Of a stretch of 64,000 bases of DNA, positions 1 to 55,984 are shown piece by piece. Source of the stretch: Deltaproteobacteria bacterium (lineage in GTDB: Bacteria; Desulfobacterota; Dissulfuribacteria; Dissulfuribacterales; QOAL01); the NCBI GenBank assembly GCA_026995935.1, contig JALWNK010000017.1, forward strand, positions 865-64,864. Direction: 5' to 3'. Made by a program: the position numbers and the translations under genes. Under the pieces are notes generated by a model. It saw only the letters and a program-made list of their open reading frames with translations, made no database searches and was not told where the DNA came from. Each line of letters starts with the position of its first letter. Position 1 is the stretch's first letter.

Positions 1-131
1 AGGGTCACATTCTGCTTTGAAAAACCGGGGGTATTTACATTGGATATGTTGTGACCAGTGGTCTGAAGGCTTGTCTGCTGGGCAAGAAGCCCCACCTTTG
101 CAATGTTTAAGAGATTGGTTAGTCCGCTCAT
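1..131 (-). CDS. flgK: Flagellar hook-associated protein 1 (FlgK), first 43 codons only; gene continues past the window start
   Basis: Reverse complement of 1..131 reads MSGLTNLLNIAKVGLLAQQTSLQTTGHNISNVNTPGFSKQNVT, the conserved N-terminal segment of flagellar axial proteins. The ATG at 129-131 overlaps the stop of the upstream ORF (ATGA). It is absent from the ORF track because it runs off the window. Confidence 0.8.
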   Translation of the reverse strand, partial: MSGLTNLLNIAKVGLLAQQTSLQTTGHNISNVNTPGFSKQNVT

Positions 132-766
132 GACTGTTTCCCCACGGTTTCCTTTAACAGATTCTTATAACTTGCAAATCCCCTCTTAAGATCCGAGGAA
201 TTTATGCTGGAGGCGCCATCACTGCCCCAAAATGCTCCGTTGGCAGCTCCCTCATTTTTGGAAGACGATTTGACTGGCCCATAGGTTGGGCCTTTTTTTA
301 ATGACGCGCCTGAGAGGATACCTGAAAGCTCACTGAAAAAACCAAGGCGCTCCCGTACCCAGTGGTAGATCCTGGAATTTGTGACCACACATAGCCGTCT
401 GAAGTAGTCCCGCCTTCCAAAAAGGAGCTTAAGTTGCCTTGCGGCTTTCACATCAAGCCCCTTACTCACCTCTTCCCAAAACCTCTCGCCTTCCCTGTCT
501 ATCTCCGGGAAGAGGCAGGAAAGCATCTGGCTTAGGCCCTTTTCCCTTTCCCTAATCCCTTGGGCAAGCTCCTCCTTCATCCTTGAAATTTTGAGCAGTC
601 GCTTTATGTCATTTCTCAAAAGAAGCTTCCACTCGGCCTGTAAGACCATGTCCATCTTCTCCCACATCTGGCCAAGGAGCTTTAGCTCCTCCATAATCGT
701 TGTAATTTCGCCAGACATGGCAGCACCCTTTGTGGTAATTTGTTCTTGCTGGTTCTTACTGGCCAT
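128..766 (-). CDS. Flagellar-cluster protein, possibly a FlgN-like export chaperone
   Basis: 212-aa ORF between flgJ and flgK, translationally coupled to flgK (ATGA overlap). The N-terminal half is helical and rich in Leu and charged residues (EITTIMEELKLLGQMWEKMDMVLQAEWKLLLRND). The call rests mainly on position, and the family assignment is weak. Confidence 0.45.
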   Translation of the reverse strand: MASKNQQEQITTKGAAMSGEITTIMEELKLLGQMWEKMDMVLQAEWKLLLRNDIKRLLKISRMKEELAQGIREREKGLSQMLSCLFPEIDREGERFWEEVSKGLDVKAARQLKLLFGRRDYFRRLCVVTNSRIYHWVRERLGFFSELSGILSGASLKKGPTYGPVKSSSKNEGAANGAFWGSDGASSINSSDLKRGFASYKNLLKETVGKQS

Positions 767-778
767 TGGTACTTCCCC

Positions 779-1090
779 TTACCTTCTTCCAGAAAGCTGT
801 TCAAAGAGCACCTGGCTTAGGCCTATGCCGCGTCCTGACTCGGCGGCCTCCTGGGCAACCTGCTGGTCAAAGAGGCTCGTATAGATGTCTTTTTGAAGCG
901 AGTCGGAAAAGAGGCCTGATTTTGGAATTGCCTTTCTCATCTCCTTGAGCATCATGGTCAAGAAGATGGATTCAACTCCCTGACACGCCTTCTTGAGTCT
1001 TTCCGGGTCCCTGGCCTTTAGGTCCGTAACCGTCTCTTTTCCGCCTGTATGAGAAAGCTCAGGTGTAATCAAATTGTTTGAAATCTTCAT
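779..1090 (-). CDS. flgJ: Flagellar rod-binding protein (FlgJ N-terminal-type, no muramidase domain)
   Basis: 103 aa with the Rod_binding-type pattern ACQGVESIFLTMMLKEMRK...LFSDS...DIYTSLFDQQVAQ. Lies directly downstream of flgI. Confidence 0.8.
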   Translation of the reverse strand: MKISNNLITPELSHTGGKETVTDLKARDPERLKKACQGVESIFLTMMLKEMRKAIPKSGLFSDSLQKDIYTSLFDQQVAQEAAESGRGIGLSQVLFEQLSGRR

Positions 1091-1105
1091 GCCAAATGCC
1101 CCTTC

Positions 1106-2257
1106 TTAAATTACCTGGATATCTGCCTGCAAAGCGCCAGAGGCCTTAATGGACTGCATTATTGCAATAAGGTCCCTAGGGGTGACCCCCACGGCGTTAA
1201 GGGCGGAGACAAGCTCGCCTATGGTTGAGCCATGCTTTAGCACAACGAGCTTTCCCCCACCTTCGTTGACCTTGACCTCTGTCCCCGGTGTGACCACGGT
1301 CCGCCCCTGGCGGGAAAAGGGCGCTGGCTGCGACACCTGCGGTGACTCCTTAATCTGTATGCTCAGGTTGCCGTGTGCTACTGCAACCGTTGAAATCCGC
1401 ACGTCCTTACCCATGACAACAGTGCCTGTCCGCTCATCAAGCACCACCCTGGCCTTGGTATCCGGGCTTATCTCAACGTTTTCAATGGCAGACATGAGGG
1501 ATACGGGAGAGCCTTCAAACTCAGGAGGCACCCTCACTTTTATGGTCTCTGCATCTATTGCCTTTGCAAAGGGGGCGCCCAGGACGTCGTTTATGGCATC
1601 CACGGCACGCCCGACAGTGGTGAAATCGGGCTGGAAGAGGTTTATCTTGAGCTCCTTCTTTGCAAGAAGATTCACTGGTATCTCCCGCTCGACAGTTGCG
1701 CCGTTTGGGATCCGCCCGGCAGTTGGATGATTCTTCTGGACATTTGCGCCAGCGCCCCCGGCAGAGTAGCCACCAACACTTACCGGCCCTTGGGCAAGGG
1801 CGTAAATCTTGCCATCAATGCCCTTAAGAGGGGTAAGTATCAGGGTGCCGCCTAGAAGGCTCTTTGCGTCTCCAAGGGAGGAGACCACCACGTCTATCTT
1901 CTGGCCTATCTTTGCAAGAGGCGGCATCTTTGCAGTAACCAGAACCGCAGCCACGTTCTTAACCTTTACCTGGTTGGGATCGATGCTGATGATGCCCATT
2001 CTTTCCATGATGTTCCTGATGGACTTTATGGTAAACTTCACCTGAGTGCCATCCCCTGTTCCGGCAAGCCCAACCACAAGACCGTAACCAACGAGCTGGT
2101 TTTCCCTTAGCCCCTGAACAGATGCAATGTCCTTGAGCCTTGCCGCCTTAAGTTCACCCACCTGGCCAAGCCCCAGAAAAAGAGCCAAACAGAACAGGAC
2201 AATTTTTCCTACCAGAAAATTTCTGGACATCTTTTTCGCCTTGTTAACTTTATCCAT
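1106..2257 (-). CDS. flgI: Flagellar P-ring protein FlgI
   Basis: 383 aa with a signal peptide, then RLKDIASVQGLRENQLVGYGLVVGLAGTGD and the C-terminus MQSIKASGALQADIQVI, typical of FlgI. An alternative start at the internal ATG (2230) is possible. Confidence 0.93.
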   Translation of the reverse strand: MDKVNKAKKMSRNFLVGKIVLFCLALFLGLGQVGELKAARLKDIASVQGLRENQLVGYGLVVGLAGTGDGTQVKFTIKSIRNIMERMGIISIDPNQVKVKNVAAVLVTAKMPPLAKIGQKIDVVVSSLGDAKSLLGGTLILTPLKGIDGKIYALAQGPVSVGGYSAGGAGANVQKNHPTAGRIPNGATVEREIPVNLLAKKELKINLFQPDFTTVGRAVDAINDVLGAPFAKAIDAETIKVRVPPEFEGSPVSLMSAIENVEISPDTKARVVLDERTGTVVMGKDVRISTVAVAHGNLSIQIKESPQVSQPAPFSRQGRTVVTPGTEVKVNEGGGKLVVLKHGSTIGELVSALNAVGVTPRDLIAIMQSIKASGALQADIQVI

Positions 2258-2341
2258 GTTTTCAGCTAGTTAAAATCAAAAACGGGTTTCTGCCTCGTTT
2301 TCTCACCCTTGTTGTCTAAAACCCTGCAAACTCCAGGCCTT

Positions 2342-3052
2342 TTAAAATGGCGCTATTATGCCAAGCAGCCTTCCCAGCCAGCCTGGGTGCTGCATCTCAC
2401 TCAAATAACCGCCTCCCGTGTAGGTTATGCGGGCATCTGCAATCTTTGTGGATGAAATCTCGTTGTTGTGGTCTATGTCTGCAGGCCGCACTATGCCGGT
2501 CAAAATCATGTACTGGGTCTCGTTGTTGATGGTTATCTCTCTGCTTCCCCGGACGAAGAGGTTGCCTCCCGGCAACTTTTTCATCACTCTTACGGAAATG
2601 GTTCCAGAAAGCCTGGTATCCCCGGATGTGTTGCCCTGGCTGTCGAACTTGTTCTCTCCAAGCCCACCAATGGCCTTGGTGGCATCCACCTTTTGCCCTG
2701 GATAGTGGGGGGAAACCTGCTTGTTGAATTCCAGCCCCAGTATGCCCGTAAGCCCCACATTTACAGAGGTCTTCTTGTCTGTCTTGGTCTTGATGTCCTT
2801 TGAACCCTTGAGGTTCTCCTCTATCTTCACCGTTAGAATATCCCCCACCTTCCTGGCCCTGAAGTCAGCCACCAGACTGCTTTCCTGGTCAGGGTCGAAA
2901 AGGGAGCCTTCCTGTGGCTGGGATGGAACAATTGGAAGCGGGGCATAGGAGGTTTCATAGTTTTTGTTCATGACAGGGGGCTGGTTAATGGCACATCCGC
3001 TAAGAAGCGCAAGGAGTACTGCCAAAAGGAAGATATTTCTGTAACCCTTCAT
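2342..3052 (-). CDS. flgH: Flagellar L-ring lipoprotein FlgH
   Basis: Lipobox LLALLSGCA plus FlgH motifs (KVGDILTVKIEE, LSGTISVRV, GNLFVRGSREI, QYMILTGIVRPADI). I moved the start to ATG 3052, which is preceded by AAGGAGG. The track ORF start at 3112 would overlap flgA. Confidence 0.92.
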   Translation of the reverse strand: MKGYRNIFLLAVLLALLSGCAINQPPVMNKNYETSYAPLPIVPSQPQEGSLFDPDQESSLVADFRARKVGDILTVKIEENLKGSKDIKTKTDKKTSVNVGLTGILGLEFNKQVSPHYPGQKVDATKAIGGLGENKFDSQGNTSGDTRLSGTISVRVMKKLPGGNLFVRGSREITINNETQYMILTGIVRPADIDHNNEISSTKIADARITYTGGGYLSEMQHPGWLGRLLGIIAPF

Positions 3053-3062
3053 CTCTGCCTCC

Positions 3063-3830
3063 TTAGAAATTAACCAGGACTGTGTTCTCATCCTGTACCC
3101 TGGCCACCACAACCCTTTTTGAATCTAGATTCTTCACCCTGACGTAATCACCCTGAGCGCCCCTCTGCTCAACTATTCCGGGCACTGTTATACGCAGATT
3201 TGGGGATGCCGCCACTATAAGGACCCTGCTTCCCCTCTTAACCAGCACAGGCTTTGCCACATCCGTTGCAAGAAGTACCTGGCCCGGTCTGATACTCCTT
3301 TTTGCAGCAAGGCCTGAGACCTGGCCCGGGCTGTCGAAAAATCTGCCCCTGAGCTTGCTTATGGGAAGGCGCACAAGGCTGAGATCTCCGGGAAGGATGA
3401 CCTGCCCCTTTGAAAGGCCGTTTTTCGCACAAAGTATCTTCTTGTAAACCTCAACGTATCCGCAAACACGGGCCTTTCTTACAGGCCTTCCATCTACAAG
3501 TATGGTGGCTACTGCCGAAACCCTTCCCAGATGAAACGCCAAGGCCTCGCTATCAAACTCAAAGGAAACCTTTCCAACAGGAACCCATATCCTTTTGGGA
3601 AGCACCCTGAGATTTGTTATCTCAACGTCCGCCTCCTCCCATGGCCCCTTCTTCTTCACATACGTGGAAAAGATATCCTGAAGTCTTTCCGCATCCACAA
3701 GCTGGCTTTCTGAAGCCCAACTGGATGCATTAGGCACCAAAGAAAAAAGCATGAAAATAAGGACCGTGACCATTAAAACAGGGGCCAGCATCCCATTTTT
3801 CTTTTCTTTGTAATTAGGTGTTACCTTCAC
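3063..3830 (-). CDS. flgA: Flagellar basal-body P-ring formation chaperone FlgA
   Basis: 255 aa with a signal peptide and a SAF/FlgA C-terminal pattern (RPGQVLLATDVAKPVLVKRGSRVLIV...GDYVRVKNLDSKRVVVARV). GTG start with GGAGGT 6 nt upstream. Position is between flgG and flgH. Confidence 0.85.
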   Translation of the reverse strand: MKVTPNYKEKKNGMLAPVLMVTVLIFMLFSLVPNASSWASESQLVDAERLQDIFSTYVKKKGPWEEADVEITNLRVLPKRIWVPVGKVSFEFDSEALAFHLGRVSAVATILVDGRPVRKARVCGYVEVYKKILCAKNGLSKGQVILPGDLSLVRLPISKLRGRFFDSPGQVSGLAAKRSIRPGQVLLATDVAKPVLVKRGSRVLIVAASPNLRITVPGIVEQRGAQGDYVRVKNLDSKRVVVARVQDENTVLVNF

Positions 3831-3854
3831 TTTCTTACCTCCAGTGCCACCAGG

Positions 3855-4634
3855 CTATCTCTTTAGGTTGTTGGCAATCCCCATCATCTCGTCAGCAGTC
3901 TGGACTGCCTTTGAATTAAGCTCATAGGCCCTCTGGGTTACGATCATGTCCACCATTTCAAGGACAACGTCCACATTTGACTGCTCGAGAAAGCCCTGGG
4001 CGATGGTTCCAAAGCTGTCCGTGCCCGGGTTTCCCTCAATGGGGTCGCCCGAGGCCTCGCTCTGCCTGTAAAGGTTCCTTCCCATGCTTATAAGGCCTGC
4101 CGGATTTGGAAAGTCCGTTATGGTGAGCTGGGCCTGGGCCAGGGGATTGCCCCCCTGGTCAGATGCGGTAATAAGCCCGTAGGCGTCAATTGTTATGTTC
4201 ACGGTTCCCTGGGGTACGGAAAACTCGGGCTGGAGCCTGTATCCCTCAGCGGTAACTACGTAGCCGTCCCGATCCAACTTGAATGCCCCGGCCCTGGTGT
4301 AGACCTCTTCACCGTTTGCCAGGATCTTAAAGAAACCACGCCCCTCTATTGCCCAGTCCAGGTTGTTGCCTGTGTTTTCGTAGTCGCCCTGGGTGAAAAT
4401 CTTCTGTATGGCTGCGGGCCTTGAACCCAGGCCCACCTGCATGCCTGTTGGTGTCTGGGTGCCATCGCCGTTTTCCGTGCCCGGCATCTTAAGCGTCTGG
4501 TAAATGAGATCCTCAAAGTCCGCACGGCTTCTCTTGTAGGCGGTTGTCTTGCTGTTTGCCAGGTTGTTTGAAATAACATCAAGGTTGAGCTGCATGCTGT
4601 TCATGCCAGATGCGCCTGTCCATAGGGCTCTCAT
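3855..4634 (-). CDS. flgG: Flagellar distal rod protein FlgG
   Basis: 259 aa. N-terminus MRALWTGASGMNSMQLNLDVISNNLANSKTTAYKR and C-terminus QGFLEQSNVDVVLEMVDMIVTQRAYELNSKAVQTADEM are hallmark FlgG sequences. Confidence 0.95.
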   Translation of the reverse strand: MRALWTGASGMNSMQLNLDVISNNLANSKTTAYKRSRADFEDLIYQTLKMPGTENGDGTQTPTGMQVGLGSRPAAIQKIFTQGDYENTGNNLDWAIEGRGFFKILANGEEVYTRAGAFKLDRDGYVVTAEGYRLQPEFSVPQGTVNITIDAYGLITASDQGGNPLAQAQLTITDFPNPAGLISMGRNLYRQSEASGDPIEGNPGTDSFGTIAQGFLEQSNVDVVLEMVDMIVTQRAYELNSKAVQTADEMMGIANNLKR

Positions 4635-4653
4635 AGACTGCTTCCTCCCTTTT

Positions 4654-5406
4654 CTATCCTACCCTGCCAAGGCTGTTTGCCGCCTTGTCATCAAGCTGAT
4701 CAATGGCCTGGAGGCTCTTTTGTTGGGCCTCGTAGCCGCGGTTTAAATCAATCAGATGCACCATCTCCATCATGGCGTTCACGTTTGACATCTCAATGTA
4801 ACCCTGTTTCACAGGAGAATCTGCTGGACTTGGTCTTCCTGCCGCCTCTGTGGCCTGGAAAAAGTTTCCCCCAAGGCGTTTCAGTTTCTGCGGATCATCA
4901 AAGGTAACCACATCAATCTTTGAACTTATGGTGTCATCCACGAAGAAGTTTCCGTCCTCGCTAAGCCAGACCCCGTCTCCTGTAGTATCTTCAAGGGTAA
5001 TTGGAACGCCGTTTCCAAGGACCGGATAACCCTCCTTGGTCACAAGCTGGTATTTGCTGTTCAGGGTGAAATTTCCCGCCCTTGTATAGATTGGCCCCTT
5101 AGGGCCCTGAACCACAAAAAAACCCGGACCGTCAATTGCCATGTCATAGGGGTTGTCAGATTTTTGCAGGCTTCCTGCGGAAAAATCTGCCCAGCCCTGT
5201 TCACCTTTTGCCGTCCTGCTGGTCCCGTCCTGCTCCTTCAACAGGTACTCATGGAAGGTTATGCCAGAAGCCTTAAAGCCCGTGGTATCCACGTTTGCCA
5301 GGTTGTTTGAAGTGACTTCCAGCTTGCGTTCAAGGATCATTGCCCCTTCCAGGGCCTCCATAGCCCCAAGTCGTGAATATGGATGTAGTCCTGTATAAAA
5401 TGCCAT
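4654..5406 (-). CDS. flgF: Flagellar proximal rod protein FlgF (FlgF/FlgG family)
   Basis: 250 aa with rod-family N-terminal (SNNLANVDTTGFK) and C-terminal (GYIEMSNVNAMMEMVHLIDLNRGYEAQQK) motifs. Immediately upstream of flgG. Confidence 0.88.
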   Translation of the reverse strand: MAFYTGLHPYSRLGAMEALEGAMILERKLEVTSNNLANVDTTGFKASGITFHEYLLKEQDGTSRTAKGEQGWADFSAGSLQKSDNPYDMAIDGPGFFVVQGPKGPIYTRAGNFTLNSKYQLVTKEGYPVLGNGVPITLEDTTGDGVWLSEDGNFFVDDTISSKIDVVTFDDPQKLKRLGGNFFQATEAAGRPSPADSPVKQGYIEMSNVNAMMEMVHLIDLNRGYEAQQKSLQAIDQLDDKAANSLGRVG

Positions 5407-5430
5407 TTCACTGCCTCCTGTGCAGTTAAC

Positions 5431-5446
5431 AGCAAGTCTTGTGCCT
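5431..5446 (-). promoter_or_regulatory. Candidate sigma-54 (-24/-12) promoter of the flgF-flgK operon
   Basis: The minus strand reads AGGCAC-AAGAC-TTGCT, against the consensus TGGCAC-N5-TTGCW, with correct GG/GC spacing. It lies about 25 nt upstream of the flgF ATG, with AGGAGG in between. Confidence 0.55.
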
Positions 5447-5510
5447 GCAACAAAATCTGTCTTTTAAGGCGTATTAAAAACGGGGGAGGAAAAGGAGGTG
5501 AAAGAAAAGG

Positions 5511-5789
5511 TCAGGAAGCTGCCTTTTTGTTGAGCTCATAGACCCAGGCAAGGATCTGGGCAACTATCACATAGGTTTCCGGTGGAATTTCAGAGTAAAG
5601 ATCTAGTTTTGAAAGCACCTCCACGAGATCCGCCTGCTCTTTTATGGGAACGCCTGCCTCTTTTGCGATCTCGATTATCTTTTCGGCTATGCTGCCCTGA
5701 CCCTTGGCGGTGATCCTTGGGGCGCTGTCCTTTCCAGGTTCGTACCTCAAGGCAACGGCGCTTTTTTTCTTCTTGGTCCTCTTTTTCAT
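5511..5789 (-). CDS. Stand-alone FlhB C-terminal-domain-like protein (EscU/YscU/HrcU family, YlqH-like)
   Basis: 92 aa. ALRYEPGKDSAPRITAKGQGSIAEKIIEIAKEAGVPIKEQADLVEVL...IPPETYVIVAQILAWVY matches the cytoplasmic FlhB-C fold pattern. Confidence 0.85.
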   Translation of the reverse strand: MKKRTKKKKSAVALRYEPGKDSAPRITAKGQGSIAEKIIEIAKEAGVPIKEQADLVEVLSKLDLYSEIPPETYVIVAQILAWVYELNKKAAS

Positions 5790-5795
5790 GGGTGA

Positions 5796-7772
5796 TCAGG
5801 TGACAATGTGGAGCCCTGAAGGCCCGTCTTCTAAGAACATATCTGAGATGGTATCCGCTCCTTCAAGACGCGGCGCAACCTCCATGTCCGCAATTTTAAA
5901 ACCTGCGCCCTTTAACGCCTGGGAAAGCTCAAAAAGCCCCTTTCTAACCACCTGCACCTTGTCCTCTTCTGCCCGGATGTAAACAGAAAGGCTCTCATCC
6001 CTTTTGAGCAGGTGAATATCAAGCTCACCAAGGTTTTTAAGGCTGAGGTCAAAGAACAGGTGAGACACCTCTGCCCCTTTGTCTGTCTTTTCCGGTTCGG
6101 TCTCTTTCCAGAACATCCACTGCCCTGCCCCTTGAAAGTGAGAAAGGAAAAAGGGCATGATGAAAAGTTCCATTCCCTTCTGTGTGAGCTGCATCTGAAG
6201 ATGCTGGCTAATATCAAGCTGATCCAGAAAGGCCCTTGCAAATTGATGAACGGCAGCATCTTTGTTCGGGGCCATTGCCGTTTTGTGTGTCCCGTCCCCG
6301 GAACGCTCATTTGGTTGATCCACGCGGGGGTCTACCCGGTGAAGACCTTGCCGTGGTGTTTCCCTTAAAGACTGATTGTCTTTTAAGGGTGTTTCTCCAC
6401 TATCCAACCCGGCCTTTCCAGGTGCCGTGGCTTGAGACGACTCCAAGGATGCCTTGGAAAAGGCCTCGTCCTGGCCCTTTTGTGCCAAGATGTCATTTGG
6501 ACCTTGTCCCTCAACATTCTTTAAGATGTGTCTTTGTGCCTGCCGGCTGACCTTTCCAGGAAACATGGCATTGACCTGTCCCTTTGGCGCACCTTTTCCT
6601 GACTCGCTCCTTCCCGCAGGGATTATTGAGCCTTCCTGTGAAAAAAGCTCGCCATGACTCCGTACGTCACCTTCTCTTAAAAGGGAAGCCTTGCCACCTG
6701 CATTTTCACTGGAGATATCTTCTCCCTTAACGCCCAGGTATGTATTGCCGGTTACGCCCCTCTTTCCGCCACCAACCCCATTATTATCGATCAGGTTGGG
6801 AAAAGGCCTGGATTCTGAAGAAGTCTCCGGTTTTTCTTGGGAAAAAGAGCTATTCTTTGATAGAGGCTCCGTTTTGACACCAGGAGCTTGCCCCCTGTTT
6901 TCACTGCCCTTAACATTTAAAGGGCCTTCTTCTTTCTTTCCATCTGATAAAGGGGCATTAGTGGTATTTAAAGAAAAAGTCCTTTGCAATGGCTTTTTGC
7001 CATGAACGCTTTCGGCTGAGCTTGAAACAGCCTGTGTATCGGCCCTTTGGCCTTCGCCTTTTATTGGAGCATCGCCTTTCAAGGAAAGGGTCCCTTCCTT
7101 TCCGGGCATGTCAGTCTTTAAAATGCTATCTTGAGATTTTTTACTGTCTCCTTGAAGGCCTTGTGAAAAGGCCTCCTGGCCCTTTTCATCGCCAGATAAC
7201 ACAGCCCTTAAAAGACGTATTCCCGCCTCAACGGAAACTTTTACTGCCTGCTCCACATCTTCTGCACCCTGCCATTGACCCTTGTCACCTCCCATTTCAA
7301 AAAAGGTCATGAGCTTTGACAAGGCATCATTCTTCAAAACCTGCTCACCCTCACCCTGGGAGGAAACAGGGGTGTTTTCAACACCAGCAAGCAGACTTCC
7401 AAGTGCCTTTAAGCGCGAAATGTTTGCCCTTGAAAGGGCCGTAAGCCCCCTTAACCTTCCTCCGGGGCCACTATTCTCAAGACTCCAGGATTCAAGCCTT
7501 ACCCTGGCAGGCGTACCTCCCTGGAGGACTCTTAGCTTCACCATGGCGCCCCTTGGTGCATCAAGCTCCCCCTTTGCAGTCAAAAGGCCCCTGTCCGTCT
7601 CTATTTCAAAGACACCGCCTTGGGCCTTTAAAAGCCTTCCTGTTACCACCTGGCCAGGCTCAAGCCCTGTCTTTTGCCCTGCCACCTTTCCTTCCTTTAC
7701 CTTGGAGGTGGCATCGCTTGTGTCGATATTTTTTTGCAGTATCCCCAGGAGATACGAAGATATGGAATTCAT
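5796..7772 (-). CDS. Putative flagellar hook-length control protein (FliK-like)
   Basis: 658 aa with a long low-complexity Gly/Lys/Ser/Glu/Pro-rich centre. The C-terminus (HLFFDLSLKNLGELDIHLLKRDESLSVYIRAEEDKVQVVRKGLFELSQALKGAGFKI) follows the FliK C-terminal (Flg_hook) pattern. It sits directly upstream of the FlhB-C-like gene. Confidence 0.6.
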   Translation of the reverse strand: MNSISSYLLGILQKNIDTSDATSKVKEGKVAGQKTGLEPGQVVTGRLLKAQGGVFEIETDRGLLTAKGELDAPRGAMVKLRVLQGGTPARVRLESWSLENSGPGGRLRGLTALSRANISRLKALGSLLAGVENTPVSSQGEGEQVLKNDALSKLMTFFEMGGDKGQWQGAEDVEQAVKVSVEAGIRLLRAVLSGDEKGQEAFSQGLQGDSKKSQDSILKTDMPGKEGTLSLKGDAPIKGEGQRADTQAVSSSAESVHGKKPLQRTFSLNTTNAPLSDGKKEEGPLNVKGSENRGQAPGVKTEPLSKNSSFSQEKPETSSESRPFPNLIDNNGVGGGKRGVTGNTYLGVKGEDISSENAGGKASLLREGDVRSHGELFSQEGSIIPAGRSESGKGAPKGQVNAMFPGKVSRQAQRHILKNVEGQGPNDILAQKGQDEAFSKASLESSQATAPGKAGLDSGETPLKDNQSLRETPRQGLHRVDPRVDQPNERSGDGTHKTAMAPNKDAAVHQFARAFLDQLDISQHLQMQLTQKGMELFIMPFFLSHFQGAGQWMFWKETEPEKTDKGAEVSHLFFDLSLKNLGELDIHLLKRDESLSVYIRAEEDKVQVVRKGLFELSQALKGAGFKIADMEVAPRLEGADTISDMFLEDGPSGLHIVT

Positions 7773-7841
7773 AGGGCCTTTGGCTATTTGAAGAGTCTTA
7801 TTTATTTATCGGAATGTTTCTGGTTTCAAATCAATTTCATA

Positions 7842-9944
7842 TTAGTTCCTGGCCGCCTGTATTGCCGTGATCGCAACGGTATTTGCCACGTCCTCAACAA
7901 GGCATCCCCTGCTAAGATCGTTCACAGGCTTTTTCAGCCCCTGAATGACGGGCCCTATGGCTATGGCATTTGATGAACGCTGAACCGCCTTGTAGGTGTT
8001 GTTTCCAGTATTCAGATCAGGAAATATCAGTACGGTTGCACGCCCGGCAACCTTTGACCCTGGGGCCTTTTTCCTGGCAACCTCCATGTCAACTGCGGCA
8101 TCGTACTGAAGGGGCCCATCTATGAGGAGATCAGGACGAAGCTGCCTTGCAATCCTGACTGCCTCCTTGACCTTTTCCACGTCCTTGCCCTTTCCCGATT
8201 CACCTGTTGAGTATGAAAGCATTGCCACCCTGGGCTCTATGCCAAAGGCAGCAGCAGTGTCTGCAGAGCTTATGGCAATTGCGGCGAGTTCCCGGGCATT
8301 GGGATCAGGGTTCACGGCACAGTCCCCAAAGACCATGACCTTGGTGGGCAGACACATGAAAAATACGCTGGAGGCAATGAGCACGCCAGGCTTTGTCTTT
8401 ATTATCTGGAAGGCCGGTCTAAGAACGTCCTGGGTGGCATGGGCCGCCCCTGAAACCATCCCGTCAACAACATCGTTATAGACGAGCATGGTGCCAAAGT
8501 AGTTAACATCAAGCATGGCATCCCGGGCAGCATCCATGGTAACACCCTTGTGCCTCCGCATTTCATAGAACTGTTCAATGAATTTGGGAAGAAGAGGGGA
8601 GGTTGTGTGGTCAATTATATCAACGTCTGGAAGCTCGACCCCCAGGATGGATGCCCTCTCAAGGACCTCATCCTTCTTGCCAAGCATGGTTATGTCAACC
8701 ACGTCCCTGGTGCGCAGTATCTCGGCGGCCTTCAGAATCCTGTCATCGTAGCTTTCAGGAAGAAGGATGCGCTTTTTTTGCTGCTTTGCCCATTCAAAGA
8801 GCCTGAACTCAAACATGAGAGGTGTAACAATCTCAGATGGACTGAGTTTAAGCCTCTTTTTTATCTCGTCTATGTCCACCCTGGATTCAAAGACCCCAAG
8901 GGCAAGCTCCACCTTTTTGGGGATATCCGGCCTTATTAAGGGGGTGACATTGCTTGCATTAATTGCAGCAGTAAAGGTGTCTGTTTCTACACCTATTATG
9001 GGAATGGCCCTGTTCCTCATCCCTTCAATAAGCCTGGTGACACGTCTTCCCGGAATGAGCCCTCCGGTAAGCAGAATGCCCGCTATGTTTGGAAAGGCCT
9101 TTGAAAAGATGGTTGAAAGGGTGCCAACCACTATGTCTTCCCTGTCCCCCGGAGTAATGATGAGGTCTCCGTTTTCTATGTAGGAAAGGTAATTGTCCAG
9201 GGTCATGGCAGCGACCTTGAACTGTGTGGCTATGCGGTTGAGGCTCTCCCTTTCACCGTAGATGAAGCGGCAGCCCAGCCCTTCCATAATTTCCCCCACT
9301 GTAGGGGAAGAAAGCTCCTTAACATCGGGAATTACATAGACAGGCGCAGACTCCTCCGGCTGGTTCTTAAACACCTCCTGGAGCTTTTTGAGGCAGTCTG
9401 GCCCAACACGGTTCACCACAGTTGCAAGGTGAAAGCAGCCCTCCTCCTGAACCGTCTCTTCTGTAAGCCTTACCTCTTCCACTATCTCCTTGAATTTTTG
9501 GCCCCTTCCTGAAATGACGCCCATCAGGCCTGCACCTAGGTTTTTGGCGATGTTTATATTGGCGTCCACATCAAAGCCCGAGCTTATACCCGAGGATTCA
9601 AAACCCTCTATTATCATGAAGTCGTAGTTGCCCTTTATCCTGTTGTACTTTTCAAGAATGGCCTGAACCATTTCCTTGAATCTGCCCTCTGCCCCAAGGG
9701 CCTGGACCTCATCCACCTTGAAGACGTGGGCATCCTGGTATGAAATATCCAGGTTGTACCTTGTAAGGATCAGATTGAGATCGTTATCAGGCTCCTGTTC
9801 AGACCTTATCACGGGCCTGAAAAAGCCCACCCGGCTTAACTCTCTGGAGATGAGCTCCATCATGCCAAGAGTCACCATGAGCTTCCCGGCCCGGGGCTCA
9901 AGGGAGGTTATGTAAATGGCCTTCTGATCCTGTTTTCCGCCCAT
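7842..9944 (-). CDS. pta: Phosphate acetyltransferase, long form (N-terminal P-loop-like/DRTGG region + PTA_PTB domain)
   Basis: About 700 aa. N-terminus IYITSLEPRAGKLMVTLGMMELISR and C-terminal PTA domain (ILLPESYDDRILKAAE...SGAAHATQDVLRPAFQIIKT...ANLLIFPDLNTGNNTYK-like). I chose the ATG at 9944 (AAGGTGAAATC upstream); the track ORF extends to 9989. Confidence 0.93.
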   Translation of the reverse strand: MGGKQDQKAIYITSLEPRAGKLMVTLGMMELISRELSRVGFFRPVIRSEQEPDNDLNLILTRYNLDISYQDAHVFKVDEVQALGAEGRFKEMVQAILEKYNRIKGNYDFMIIEGFESSGISSGFDVDANINIAKNLGAGLMGVISGRGQKFKEIVEEVRLTEETVQEEGCFHLATVVNRVGPDCLKKLQEVFKNQPEESAPVYVIPDVKELSSPTVGEIMEGLGCRFIYGERESLNRIATQFKVAAMTLDNYLSYIENGDLIITPGDREDIVVGTLSTIFSKAFPNIAGILLTGGLIPGRRVTRLIEGMRNRAIPIIGVETDTFTAAINASNVTPLIRPDIPKKVELALGVFESRVDIDEIKKRLKLSPSEIVTPLMFEFRLFEWAKQQKKRILLPESYDDRILKAAEILRTRDVVDITMLGKKDEVLERASILGVELPDVDIIDHTTSPLLPKFIEQFYEMRRHKGVTMDAARDAMLDVNYFGTMLVYNDVVDGMVSGAAHATQDVLRPAFQIIKTKPGVLIASSVFFMCLPTKVMVFGDCAVNPDPNARELAAIAISSADTAAAFGIEPRVAMLSYSTGESGKGKDVEKVKEAVRIARQLRPDLLIDGPLQYDAAVDMEVARKKAPGSKVAGRATVLIFPDLNTGNNTYKAVQRSSNAIAIGPVIQGLKKPVNDLSRGCLVEDVANTVAITAIQAARN

Positions 9945-10065
9945 GATTTCACCTTTTTTATGGAAATTTTTGAGAGACGACCTGCCCATGATTATTTAAT
10001 ATACAGATTACTGCCTGCCGTGTTAATGGTGGTGAGCCTTTTATGATTTGTCAAAGGGGAGCAGC

Positions 10066-12833: not shown

Positions 12834-13058
12834 CTAGGTGCGATTGAAATTCCTCCTGAATAGCCCCCCCACGCCCACAAGCATTGCACCAAAAAGCACT
12901 ATGGCTGTAGGTTCTGATTTGTTAAATCCTTCTGAAAGGTAATTTGTTGCAACCCCTTGGACATGCTTTACTCCCTCCAAAGCAAATCCAGAAGTTGTTA
13001 CTGCAAGGAATAAAAGAAGAAAAAGCGCAAATACTAAATAAATTTTAAGATCAGTCAT
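12834..13058 (-). CDS. 74-aa secreted mini-protein with a PEP-CTERM-like sorting signal
   Basis: ATG 13058 is preceded by AGGAGG with a 5-nt spacer. Signal peptide MTDLKIYLVFALFLLLFLAVTTSGFA. C-terminus SEPTAIVLFGAMLVGVGGLFRRNFNRT = (P)EP + TM helix + RR, the PEP-CTERM architecture. The longer 138-aa track ORF runs through the promoter/palindrome region. Confidence 0.65.
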   Translation of the reverse strand: MTDLKIYLVFALFLLLFLAVTTSGFALEGVKHVQGVATNYLSEGFNKSEPTAIVLFGAMLVGVGGLFRRNFNRT

Positions 13059-13084
13059 GGCAACCTCCTGTTGATCTTTTAAAT

Positions 13085-13100
13085 TGCTTATTTCATGCCA
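13085..13100 (-). promoter_or_regulatory. Candidate sigma-54 (-24/-12) promoter of the PEP-CTERM mini-gene
   Basis: The minus strand reads TGGCAT-GAAAT-AAGCA (GG and GC correctly spaced). The predicted start site is about 16 nt upstream of ATG 13058. Confidence 0.5.
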
Positions 13101-13170
13101 TGACTTTTCTTTTATTTGCCGCTTTATTACCCTGTTTTTAACGGGATTTTTCAAGATCAAGACCCAGAAA

Positions 13171-13269
13171 TGGAAAAAATTTTCTGTTAGTTGAATAAAT
13201 TTTCCCTTGAAGTGGAAAAATTTTTCCTCAATTCCTGGCCCCGAAGTCACGAATGGAAAAATTTTTTCC
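13171..13269. promoter_or_regulatory. Three phased AT-core palindromes (putative enhancer/UAS sites)
   Basis: TGGAAAAAATTTTCT (13171-13185), TGGAAAAATTTTTCC (13213-13227, containing the perfect 14-bp palindrome GGAAAAATTTTTCC) and TGGAAAAATTTTTTCC (13254-13269). Spacing is 42 and 41 bp, about 4 helical turns. They lie roughly 85-185 bp upstream of the sigma-54-like promoter. Confidence 0.55.
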
Positions 13270-13340
13270 TTTTAAACGCAAAAAGGGGGCACAGATTTTC
13301 TCAAGACAAAAAACCTGCCACTCACAAGTATAGGCGGTTT

Positions 13341-14807
13341 TTAATCTTCAGCCCCACCTTGAACCATCTCGTAATAGTCGTGTCCCTGGCAATCGTTTAT
13401 AACAATGGCAGGAAAGTCCTCTACGTAAAATTCATAAAGGGCCTCTGGACCAAGATCCTCAAAGGCCACCACCCTGGCCTCCTTTATGGCCTGTGAAAGA
13501 TACGCCCCGGCACCACCTATGGTGGCAAGATATACAGCCCCATGTTCAGAAATGCTTTTTCGGACTTCAAGGCTCCTCTTACCCTTTCCCATAAGCCCCA
13601 GAACCCCCTGCTCCAAAATAGTAGGGGTGTAGGCATCCATTCGGTAGCTGGTGGTCGGCCCTGCTGCCCCCACCACGTGCCCTGGAGGGGCAGGAGAAGG
13701 CCCAACGTAGTAAATGAGCTGCCCTTTGAGATCAACAGGAAGGCTTGCCCCGCTTTTTATTAGCTCACAAAGCCTCCTGTGGGTCTGATCCCTGCCAGTA
13801 AGAAGCCTTCCACTGAGTCTGACCCACTGGCCAGCCTTGAGAGAACGCACCTCTTCCTTTTTAAGGGGAAGAGTCAAAGGAACGGCCCTTTCAATAAGGT
13901 ATGAAGCGCCTGAAATATTATCTTCAAAGTGAGTGCCAGAGTGTCCTTGAATCGTCCACCTGCCCTTTTCAAAAAGGGCCGTTGCCTTTCTTGCAGCGTG
14001 GCACTGGATGTTCACAGCAACAGGAAGGCTTGCTATGTGGCACGGATACTTCTCAAGGGCGACCCACAATGTGGTGGTTCTGCCTCCAAGTCCCTGTGGA
14101 CCTATGCCAAGGCCGTTTATCCTTTCAAGGAGGCTCTTCTCCAGCCTGGCAAGTTCACTGCTGCTGCTTTCTTTTCCGACAGGACGAAGCAGGGCCTTTT
14201 TTGAAAGAAAGGCGGCCATCTCCATGGTCCCGCCAATACCGACACCTATTATTCCAGGCGGACAGGGGTTTGGACCTGCCTTACGCACACATTCAACAAC
14301 AAAATCCATGACACCATCCATGCCTGCAGATGGGGGGAGCATCCTGAGCCTGCTCATGTTTTCGCTTCCGCATCCCTTGGGAAGAATGGTGATCCTGAGG
14401 TTTGATCCTTTTGTCAGGGTAACGTGGACTACTGCAGGTGTGTTGTCTCCGCTGTTTTTCCTGGTCACAGGGTCACACACCGAGGCCCGCAGGTACCCTT
14501 CCTTGGTTCCACGTGCAACACCCTGGTTTATTGCCTCATAAAGGTCACCCTGAACAACCAGCTCCTGACCAAGCTCCACAAAGACGACATCGATTCCCGT
14601 ATCCTGACAGATGGGAATCCCTTGCCTTAAGGATATGGCTGCATTTTTGATGAGTATTCCAAGTATTGTGGAAGCAGTTTCTGAGCTGTCTTTCTCTTTT
14701 GCCGCCTTTATTGCTGAAAAAACATCCTGAGGCAGTACCATATTGGCCCTTCTGACTAGGTCACTGACCCTGTCTGCAATCTCAGAGGCTGAAACAGAGT
14801 AAACCAC
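13341..14807 (-). CDS. Class I (Fe-S, TtdA/TtdB-type) fumarate hydratase, alpha and beta domains fused
   Basis: 488 aa. N-terminal hydro-lyase alpha pattern (ICQDTGIDVVFVELG, VCDP, GCGSENMS, GIIGVGIGGT) followed by beta-domain motifs (LSGRLLTGRDQTHRRL, IYYVGPSPAPPG, GPTTSYRMD, GKGKRS). GTG start. Confidence 0.88.
   Translation of the reverse strand: MVYSVSASEIADRVSDLVRRANMVLPQDVFSAIKAAKEKDSSETASTILGILIKNAAISLRQGIPICQDTGIDVVFVELGQELVVQGDLYEAINQGVARGTKEGYLRASVCDPVTRKNSGDNTPAVVHVTLTKGSNLRITILPKGCGSENMSRLRMLPPSAGMDGVMDFVVECVRKAGPNPCPPGIIGVGIGGTMEMAAFLSKKALLRPVGKESSSSELARLEKSLLERINGLGIGPQGLGGRTTTLWVALEKYPCHIASLPVAVNIQCHAARKATALFEKGRWTIQGHSGTHFEDNISGASYLIERAVPLTLPLKKEEVRSLKAGQWVRLSGRLLTGRDQTHRRLCELIKSGASLPVDLKGQLIYYVGPSPAPPGHVVGAAGPTTSYRMDAYTPTILEQGVLGLMGKGKRSLEVRKSISEHGAVYLATIGGAGAYLSQAIKEARVVAFEDLGPEALYEFYVEDFPAIVINDCQGHDYYEMVQGGAED
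14505..14520. other. parS-like centromere site
   Basis: GGTTCCACGTGCAACA matches TGTTNCACGTGAAACA at 14 of 16 positions. It lies inside the fumarase gene, about 300 bp downstream of parB. Confidence 0.4.
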
Positions 14808-55704: not shown

Positions 55705-55984
55705 AATAAACTCCTCCTTTAACTTTTTTGTAATAAATTTTATGAAAATCAAACAAAAATGTGATTGAGCTGTACCACTTTAACTTTGGTTCGCTTTTTA
55801 AAATGTCAAGAAAATTTTTTAAATTTTTCTAAATAGCGAAGAATTTCAACTGGTTACAGTGAACAAAAACTCACAGAGACAGGGCAGATCCGCATTTTCG
55901 AGATAGATGCGCTATGGACATTTCCCAAGGCGTGCTTAGTTTTGTGTACCATCTTGCTTAAAAAAATTAGGAGGCAAAAATAAA

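Follow-up and report, generated by a model that had tools for sequence, protein, structure and literature searches.

We analysed a window of 64,000 nucleotides from a deltaproteobacterial contig (JALWNK010000017.1), and here we report on the intergenic region at 13059-13340, which separates the stop codon of a class-I fumarase gene (13341-14807, minus strand) from a minus-strand mini-gene of only 74 codons (12834-13058). Judged from its sequence, this region is probably a sigma-54-dependent, activator-gated promoter that serves one small PEP-CTERM-like gene. It contains an array of palindromic GGAAAAWWTTTTCC sites, a -24/-12 box about 70 nt further towards the gene and a ribosome-binding site (RBS). 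This anatomy is conserved in related loci, and the same module recurs before PEP-CTERM genes of other contigs.

The region measures 282 bp and its GC content is 0.362, compared with 0.493 for the whole window. The identity of the fumarase gene is given by the Fumerase and Fumerase_C domains detected in an orthologous locus, and the mini-gene is monocistronic, having a convergent neighbour downstream and the fumarase gene upstream. All the elements listed in a first-pass annotation of this DNA, namely the palindrome copies and a degenerate one, the TGGCAT-N5-AAGCA box, the AGGAGG, the ATG at 13058 and the 74-aa gene, were found in the sequence (Table 1). That annotation had also placed the copies on one face of the helix. 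The three good GGAAAAWWTTTTCC sites start 42 and 41 bp apart and the degenerate copy fits into a 21-bp register, at a position which is held by strong sites in other loci. The box TGGCATGAAATAAGCA has the GG of the -24 element and the GC of the -12 element at the exact spacing of a sigma-54 promoter, and it is kept in the orthologues. At -14/-15 it has AA where the consensus has TT, and this AA is itself conserved. Transcription of the mini-gene would start near 13074.

Regarding the specificity of these signals, the sole match to GGAAAAATTTTTCC with up to two mismatches outside the array was one two-mismatch site at 4857 of the window. The composite pattern, two sites followed by TGGCA at the set distance, did not occur in any of 100 shuffles. 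No sigma-70-like promoter was found upstream of the mini-gene. For a phylogenetic footprint we compared three orthologous loci, those of the window, L004 and L006 (dS 0.31-0.75; loci from other contigs are given by L numbers). Three-way identity was 0.94 in the -24/-12 box, 0.64-0.86 in the four sites and 0.77 in the 71-nt spacer that leads from the proximal site to the promoter, and it fell to 0.14-0.43 in the short spacers between sites and to 0.42 in the region above the distal site. The sites and the box are conserved in diverged orthologous loci, in contrast to the DNA that separates the sites from each other.

The mini-protein is rare. Among 5.8 billion protein clusters we found only three 90%-identity clusters, all of 74 aa, at 100%, 85% and 76% identity, and one further, distant family appeared when 1.84 billion representatives were searched exhaustively with a profile. 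The distant homologue P0012 (locus L007) is an over-called open reading frame (ORF) of 150 aa whose last 74 residues are the real protein, with 32% identity to that of the window. The homologue in L071 has 71 aa, also with 32% identity, and is syntenic with the window through its DJC28_CD neighbour. In L004 and L006 the whole order is retained: fumarase, mini-gene, a convergent DJC28_CD gene, TrkA and TrkH. The dN/dS of the mini-gene was 0.25-0.29 at the dS values given above, and this synteny and constraint point to a real, selected, single-gene unit. By inspection, all five family variants share the position of the predicted signal peptide and an A-x-A-like site, and the predicted cleavage site resembles the junction of GSAFA and LD in the 264-aa PEP-CTERM proteins of L019 and L072. 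From this predicted site to a conserved Glu-Pro there are exactly 22 residues in 5/5 variants, including the two of 32% identity (L071 and L007). The C-terminal tail that follows is strongly conserved (dN/dS 0.11-0.30).

This tail resembles the sorting signals of PEP-CTERM proteins. It runs as TAIVLFGAMLVGVGGLF, RRNFNRT and then the stop, a helix with a C-terminal basic cluster that is unique among the 648 ORFs of the window, and the mini-protein tail EPTAIVLFGAMLVGVGGLFRR parallels the canonical tail EPATIVLLGTGLIGIAGMARKR. We built a lineage tail profile from 14 canonical tails of array-linked genes. The mini-proteins scored 6.1-21.1 bits on it, with 14.5 bits for that of the window, and the best of the other window ORFs reached 3.1 bits.

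The same module was found at many other loci by two scans. The first covered 185,579 species genomes with the pattern GAAAANNTTTT-N30-32-GAAAANNTTTT-N68-78-TGGCA; most of its matches were random AT-rich DNA and the Desulfobacterota matches were the informative ones. The second, in a metagenome collection, allowed site spacings of 21 or 42 bp and required the -12 GC. In L007, the locus of the distant homologue P0012, whose upstream neighbour is a Laminin_G_3/PA14/OmpA protein and whose context is unlike that of the window, three sites stand 42 and 42 bp apart. The proximal one is separated by 83 nt from TGGCATAAAAGACGCT, compared with 84 nt in the window, and GGAGG and ATG follow. The layout of L071 is as in the window, with sites centred 75-151 nt upstream of TGGCACATAAAAAGCA. 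L024 has a box identical to that of the window and near-identical sites; the identical box is also present in L069, and equivalent boxes at the same distance from the array were seen in more than 20 other loci.

The downstream genes of these modules are informative. In L019, from a deltaproteobacterial metagenome-assembled genome (MAG), the sites keep the same register and are followed by TGGCATGTTTTAAGCG and a 264-aa protein that ends in VPEPATIVLLGTGLIGIAGMARKR and scores 23.0 bits on TIGR02595, whose cutoff is 16. In L010 two arrays lie between divergent genes, and the cluster there encodes proteins with VPIPGAAWLLGSG...RRRK tails, which score 25.7 and 26.1 bits on TIGR03370 (cutoff 25.35). 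Canonical PEP-CTERM/VPLPA-CTERM genes lie downstream of the module in L010, L019 and L090 and, among the 54 metagenome matches, in L056, L059, L062, L070, L072, L080, L086, L091, L096, L100, L102 and L103, where they encode VPEP-helix-RRKK proteins of 207-346 aa. A PEP-CTERM-type tail was found within 1.5 kb downstream in 12 of these 54 matches, and in the opposite direction in one. A GT2 glycosyltransferase gene, a PilZ gene and a gene for a DUF533 protein were further targets, and no flagellar gene was found among the identified downstream targets of both scans. From these predicted genes we take the module as a signature of a PEP-CTERM regulon, present in Desulfobacterota-like MAGs and in contigs from metagenomes. 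The proposal of an enhancer layout with a sigma-54 promoter, made in the first-pass annotation, is in large part supported by the conservation and by this recurrence before canonical PEP-CTERM genes.

The geometry of the module is strict. Counted upstream from the T of TGGCA in 15 loci, the site centres lie at 74-81 nt (about 77), 94-100 nt (about 98), 114-120 nt (about 119) and about 162 nt, so that the 21-bp register corresponds to about -103, -124, -145 and -187. The consensus of the sites is GGAAAA-WW-TTTTCC, and the motif is kept even in contigs with a GC content of 0.68-0.70 (L091, L102). The spacers of about 70 nt in 24-25 loci had no common sequence and no match to the IHF (integration host factor) consensus, and an IHF site in the spacer was rejected. 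In a period scan of 24 loci, AA/TT periodicity in the spacers peaked sharply at 10.5-11 bp (2.28 compared with about 0.9 at other periods). Such phased A/T tracts would make the DNA intrinsically curved, and the activator would in this way be brought to the closed complex. Within the conserved spacer of the window there is also a hairpin, CCTGTT-TTT-AACGGG followed by a T-run (13131-13145, plus strand). It is retained in L004 and L006, where one substitution improves the pairing, and it could either be a protein site or terminate antisense read-through that arrives from the convergent DJC28_CD gene.

A candidate for the activator comes from other contigs. In L096 and L112 the array and a sigma-54 box 77 nt away precede an operon that encodes a REC-AAA+-HTH_8 activator and then a VPEP protein; the L112 operon also ends in a gene for a tetratricopeptide repeat (TPR) protein, whereas that of L096 does not. 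The two activators are 72% identical. In L092 a gene for an enhancer-binding protein (EBP) ends just before the array that heads a PilZ gene. We tried to extend the candidate family to homologues of 44-54% identity (Desulfogranum marinum, Desulfothermus naphthae and two MAGs), two of which adjoin VPLPA-type genes, and rejected them as the motif was absent; the specificity of the activator is therefore narrow. As a separate observation, in Desulfothermus naphthae (L111, 7000-7160) an IS1-like element with an InsA-type ORF lies directly downstream of a sigma-54 box, TGGCATATTAGATGCT, with a histidine kinase/EBP pair on one side and six clustered genes for VPIPAAAWLLGSG-tailed proteins on the other.

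The mechanism that we propose is as follows. Dimers of an NtrC-type EBP would bind the GGAAAAWWTTTTCC palindromes, two helical turns apart at the register positions given above, and would assemble into an active oligomer. Over the intrinsically curved spacer of about 70 nt, the oligomer would then contact the sigma-54 holoenzyme at TGGCAT-N5-AAGCA and switch transcription on. The transcript would have a leader of about 16 nt with a strong RBS. Its product would be a pre-protein of 74 aa, composed of a signal peptide that can be cleaved off, a periplasmic or surface segment of 22 residues and a PEP-CTERM-type tail made of S-E-P, a membrane helix and an Arg cluster. The mini-protein would thus be in the regulon of the ordinary PEP-CTERM/exosortase substrates of the lineage, and most likely it would be handled by the same sorting machinery or anchored beside it. 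In this scheme we infer the dependence on sigma-54 and an EBP, the cleavage of the signal peptide, the processing by an exosortase and the identity of the activator.

Several observations weigh against this interpretation. The pattern TGGCAY-N5-WWGCW occurs once in the 64 kb, and a lone -24/-12 match is not significant because about one is expected by chance in this length; furthermore, the -12 element reads AAGCA and not TTGCW. The site-promoter link in the scan matches is partly built in, because both patterns demanded TGGCA and the second also the GC, so only the exact distances and the genes that lie downstream count as independent evidence from these matches. EBP homologues with 51-54% identity adjoin genes of PEP-CTERM variants and do not have the motif. 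As stated in the first-pass annotation, the window contains no EBP and no exosortase: none was found on search, nor any exopolysaccharide (EPS) gene, and the fetched related loci had no exosortase either. Regarding the tail, the score on TIGR02595 that the annotation had proposed as a check was 13.6 bits for the protein of the window, and 12.3 and 11.8 bits for its relatives, under the cutoff of 16. A model for LPXTG scores the mini-proteins as high as TIGR02595 does, and a Pfam scan of the mini-protein gave no match, PF07589 included. The first Pro of P-E-P is replaced by Ser in the window, L004 and L006 (S-E-P) and by Trp in L071 and L007 (W-E-P), so only the Glu-Pro is retained across the family. 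This Pro is near-invariant in PEP-CTERM domains.

By the curated tests, then, the mini-protein is not a PEP-CTERM member, and we do not file it as a proven one despite its resemblance and co-regulation. Of the PEP-CTERM-type tail claimed in the first-pass annotation, the resemblance stands, with 14.5 bits on the lineage profile, and the membership does not, given the low TIGR02595 score and the Ser in place of the first Pro. We would rather say, from resemblance and co-regulation, that the mini-protein appears to work like a PEP-CTERM protein and to belong to that regulon.

The replaced Pro leads to the alternative that we consider most seriously, although it is rather unlikely: that the regulation is as proposed above and the exosortase does not use the product as a substrate. 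Once its signal peptide is cleaved, the product would be a single-pass inner-membrane protein of 48 residues, in which S/W-E-P makes an uncleavable mimic of the sorting signal, and this mimic would modulate either the exosortase or the regulon's sensor kinase by a feedback like that of the small membrane protein MgrB. In agreement with this, Ser or Trp stands for the first Pro in every family member, the TIGR02595 scores stay below the cutoff, and the mini-gene lies among housekeeping genes and not in an EPS locus. The constant 22-residue segment and the conserved tail also suggest a fixed interaction geometry and not a passenger domain. However, the tail is otherwise near canonical, as a comparison of EP[TA]AIVLFG with EPATIVLLG makes clear. 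It is very improbable, in turn, that the sites serve a flagellar sigma-54 activator of the FlbD/DVU1063 type and that the mini-gene is a late member of the flagellar regulon. The motif of DVU1063 is a similar AT-centred palindrome (PMC4641369 supplement 4), and the window has flagellar genes at 128-9989, a cluster 3 kb from the mini-gene, with sigma-54-like boxes before rod genes (5431-5446 and 2325-2340) and a 13-mer at 4857. Nevertheless, the motif described here has 14-15 bp and not 13, its 21-bp arrays fixed at -103/-124/-145 are not the FlbD pattern, none of the identified downstream genes in either scan is flagellar while many encode PEP-CTERM proteins, and L007 has the module without a flagellar context.

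One could also regard the palindromes as generic AT-rich repeats or curved DNA and the -24/-12 match as chance, the mini-gene being transcribed from an ordinary sigma-70 promoter. The chance-level frequency of the box pattern, the AT-richness of the region and the mostly random AT-rich DNA returned by the first genome scan fit this idea. On the other hand, there is no sigma-70-like promoter upstream of the mini-gene, the window has no such site outside the array apart from the two-mismatch match at 4857, no shuffle reproduced the composite pattern, the box is 94% conserved while the neighbouring spacers are 14-43% conserved, and the geometry recurs in unrelated loci, the GC-rich contigs included. 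Because of these comparative data we find this explanation hardly credible. The activator-gated sigma-54 promoter of a PEP-CTERM-like gene is our preferred reading.

A broader extension of this reading is speculative, and we give it low confidence. The GGAAAAWWTTTTCC arrays at fixed -103/-124/-145 would mark a second sigma-54 PEP-CTERM regulon, independent of PrsR, in several lineages (contig GC 0.27-0.70), with its own autoregulated NtrC-type activator and with the [S/W]EP mini-proteins of 71-74 aa as a dedicated component. The mini-proteins could then be an exosortase pseudo-substrate or regulator, or the precursor of a surface or secreted peptide of about 22 residues. Sorting by the PEP-CTERM/exosortase system is common in sediment and biofilm bacteria and its mechanism is poorly understood. 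A second recognisable cis-signature would allow PEP-CTERM regulons to be read from MAGs and would point to the controlling activator. Moreover, a signal peptide, 22 residues and a sorting tail would be a minimal model of exosortase recognition and action, small enough for synthetic or mass-spectrometric work, and if the mini-protein is a mimic that cannot be cleaved, no small-protein regulator of this pathway would have been proposed before it.

Table 1. Features of the mini-gene and of its upstream region (positions in the window).
Feature	Position	Strand	Remarks
Mini-gene, 74 codons + stop, MTDLKIYLVFALFLLLFLAVTTSGFALEGVKHVQGVATNYLSEGFNKSEPTAIVLFGAMLVGVGGLFRRNFNRT	12834..13058	-	ORF and RBS read from sequence; stop 12834-12836, ATG 13058
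Predicted signal peptide, residues 1-26, cleavage after SGFA	12981..13058	-	by inspection: n-region, hydrophobic core, small residues at -3/-1
22-residue putative exposed segment LEGVKHVQGVATNYLSEGFNKS	12915..12980	-	dN/dS 0.13-0.41
C-terminal sorting-signal-like tail, (S)EP, hydrophobic helix, RRNFNRT	12837..12914	-	profile scores
RBS AGGAGG	13064..13069	-	unchanged in orthologues
Sigma-54-type -24/-12 box TGGCATGAAATAAGCA	13085..13100	-	GG/GC spacing correct
Spacer, proximal site to promoter, 71 nt	13101..13171	-	helix-phased A/T tracts; small conserved hairpin at 13131-13145
Putative activator site D (proximal) GGAAAAAATTTTCT	13172..13185	. (+ strand letters)	centre 78 nt from T of TGGCA
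Putative activator site C (degenerate) TGAATAAATTTTCC	13192..13205	.	centre 98 nt from T of TGGCA
Putative activator site B, perfect palindrome GGAAAAATTTTTCC	13214..13227	. (+ strand letters)	centre 120 nt from T of TGGCA
Putative activator site A (distal) GGAAAAATTTTTTCC	13255..13269	. (+ strand letters)	centre 162 nt from T of TGGCA

Gene prediction is affected by the array. An extended ORF of 138 aa (GTG 13250) was ruled out: the extension is non-coding because indels of 2 and 3 nt fall between the sites in L006, and the RBS and the ATG are conserved. On the same grounds we rejected other gene calls which translate the palindromes (P0012, 150 aa, and a 67-aa call in L004). Gene callers run ORFs through the enhancer at L007 2915-3142, L004 2805-3008 and window 13059-13250, and the translated palindromes look like ENFF/EKFF peptides that repeat every 14 residues. 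Although an artefact of annotation, this pattern can be used as a protein-level flag for the array.

Some of the loci deserve a separate comment. With respect to the window and L004, L006 has an insertion of about 170 bp (~140-390) in the stretch that leads from the fumarase stop to the distal site, and its array and promoter are intact. In L024 (Desulfobulbaceae bacterium S015_9, WFRY01000322.1, plus strand ~1238-2850) the promoter and the sites are intact and the mini-gene diverges after codon 8. The disruption is an insertion sequence that bears a DDE transposase (a 442-aa ORF, 1238-2566, minus strand) and is a natural knockout of the mini-gene in the species representative; a second transposase-like ORF lies at 3359-4513. 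L010 (4045-4700) and L090 share a layout in which the array and a good box, TGGCAAAATAATTGCT, are followed by about 640 nt without a convincing ORF, and a strong terminator-like hairpin separates this stretch from the VPLPA-CTERM gene. The stretch may correspond to a small RNA that depends on sigma-54 or to a long leader under regulation. The longest array by far is that of L041 (2290-2600, an uncultured bacterium MAG), with about 14 tandem GGAAAAnnTTTTCC-like sites 20-21 bp apart, and no properly spaced -12 GC was seen alongside it.

In the rest of the window, the palindrome GAAAATTTTTTAAATTTTTC at 55810-55829, between divergent genes, had been taken in the first-pass annotation as related to the array. 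It turned out to be a lone site that lacks the GG/CC flanks, no -24/-12 box of correct spacing lies near it, and we place it outside the motif family. The two sigma-54-like boxes of the flagellar cluster, AGGCACAAGACTTGCT and AGGCCTGGAGTTTGCA at 5431-5446 and 2325-2340 (both minus strand), lie just upstream of a rod-protein gene and of the next gene in the cluster, and the FlbD/DVU1063-type 13-mer GGAAAAAGTTTCC (4857-4869) lies within the rod gene. This suggests that the flagellar genes of the organism are under sigma-54 control. Finally, a 714-aa homologue of STT3/PglB-type oligosaccharyltransferases (PF02516, PF21436; 46870-49014, minus strand) adjoins GlnE, and the organism may therefore have N-linked protein glycosylation.

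As regards known systems, the nearest is the regulon under PrsK/PrsR/PrsT control. Most PEP-CTERM genes form an operon by themselves and have upstream regions of more than 200 nt, where a sometimes-repeated 17-nt motif ending in TTTACA, a spacer of 62.8 +/- 10.6 nt and a sigma-54 motif are found (Haft et al. 2006, PMC1569441). In the Desulfovibrionales, the PrsR orthologue DVUA0057 of Desulfovibrio vulgaris binds TGTCGGA-N5-TTTACA-type sites upstream of PEP-CTERM genes (PMC3333781, PMC4641369), and the PEP-CTERM gene pepA is RpoN-dependent in Aquincola (PMC9850573). The region described here is similar in its single-gene operon, more than 200 nt upstream, repeated motif, spacer of about 60-70 nt and -24/-12 box. 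Its distance of 71 nt from the last site to the sigma-54 motif falls within the 63 +/- 11 nt of the PrsR regulon. The mini-protein has a predicted signal peptide and, like PEP-CTERM substrates, a motif-helix-Arg tail. As in the Prs system, the PEP-CTERM gene of the L112 operon and that of L070 are each followed by a TPR gene, and an activator gene is present in L096 and L112. However, the sites are not the 17-bp PrsR box but 14-bp GGAAAAWWTTTTCC palindromes in 21-bp arrays, and the array-adjacent EBPs of other contigs, with 302.8 and 319.7 bits on TIGR02915 (cutoff 502.6), are not PrsR equivalogs. The mini-protein also differs from the canonical array-linked proteins, which have 207-346 aa and V-P-E-P, in its 71-74 aa and S/W-E-P (74 aa and S-E-P in the window).

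Enhancers of the NtrC type have several phased dimer sites about 100-150 bp upstream of a sigma-54 promoter. The palindromes on one face at about -100 to -190 agree with this, and an activator with a Fis-type HTH and oligomerisation of adjacent dimers would be expected. In contrast to such enhancers, the distance from sites to promoter is constant within a few bp across lineages, with phased A/T tracts and no IHF consensus. The flagellar FlbD/DVU1063 motif is a 13-mer, GG[AC]A-N5-T[GT]CC, for example GGAAAAATTTTCC (PMC4641369 supplement 4). It shares with our sites the AT-centred GGAAA...TTTCC palindrome before sigma-54 promoters in Desulfobacterota, but those 13-mers are single or paired, often overlap the promoter or leader and have flagellar targets, whereas the sites here are 14-15-mers arrayed at 21 bp with PEP-CTERM targets. 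The literature gave nothing on the palindrome motif beyond this FlbD-like 13-mer, and nothing specific on small PEP-CTERM proteins. Given the precedents of Haft 2006, DVUA0057 and Aquincola, the control of single-gene PEP-CTERM operons by sigma-54 and an activator is already known and the layout is not new. What differs here is the activator site, which is not that of PrsR, together with the S/W-E-P product of 71-74 aa.

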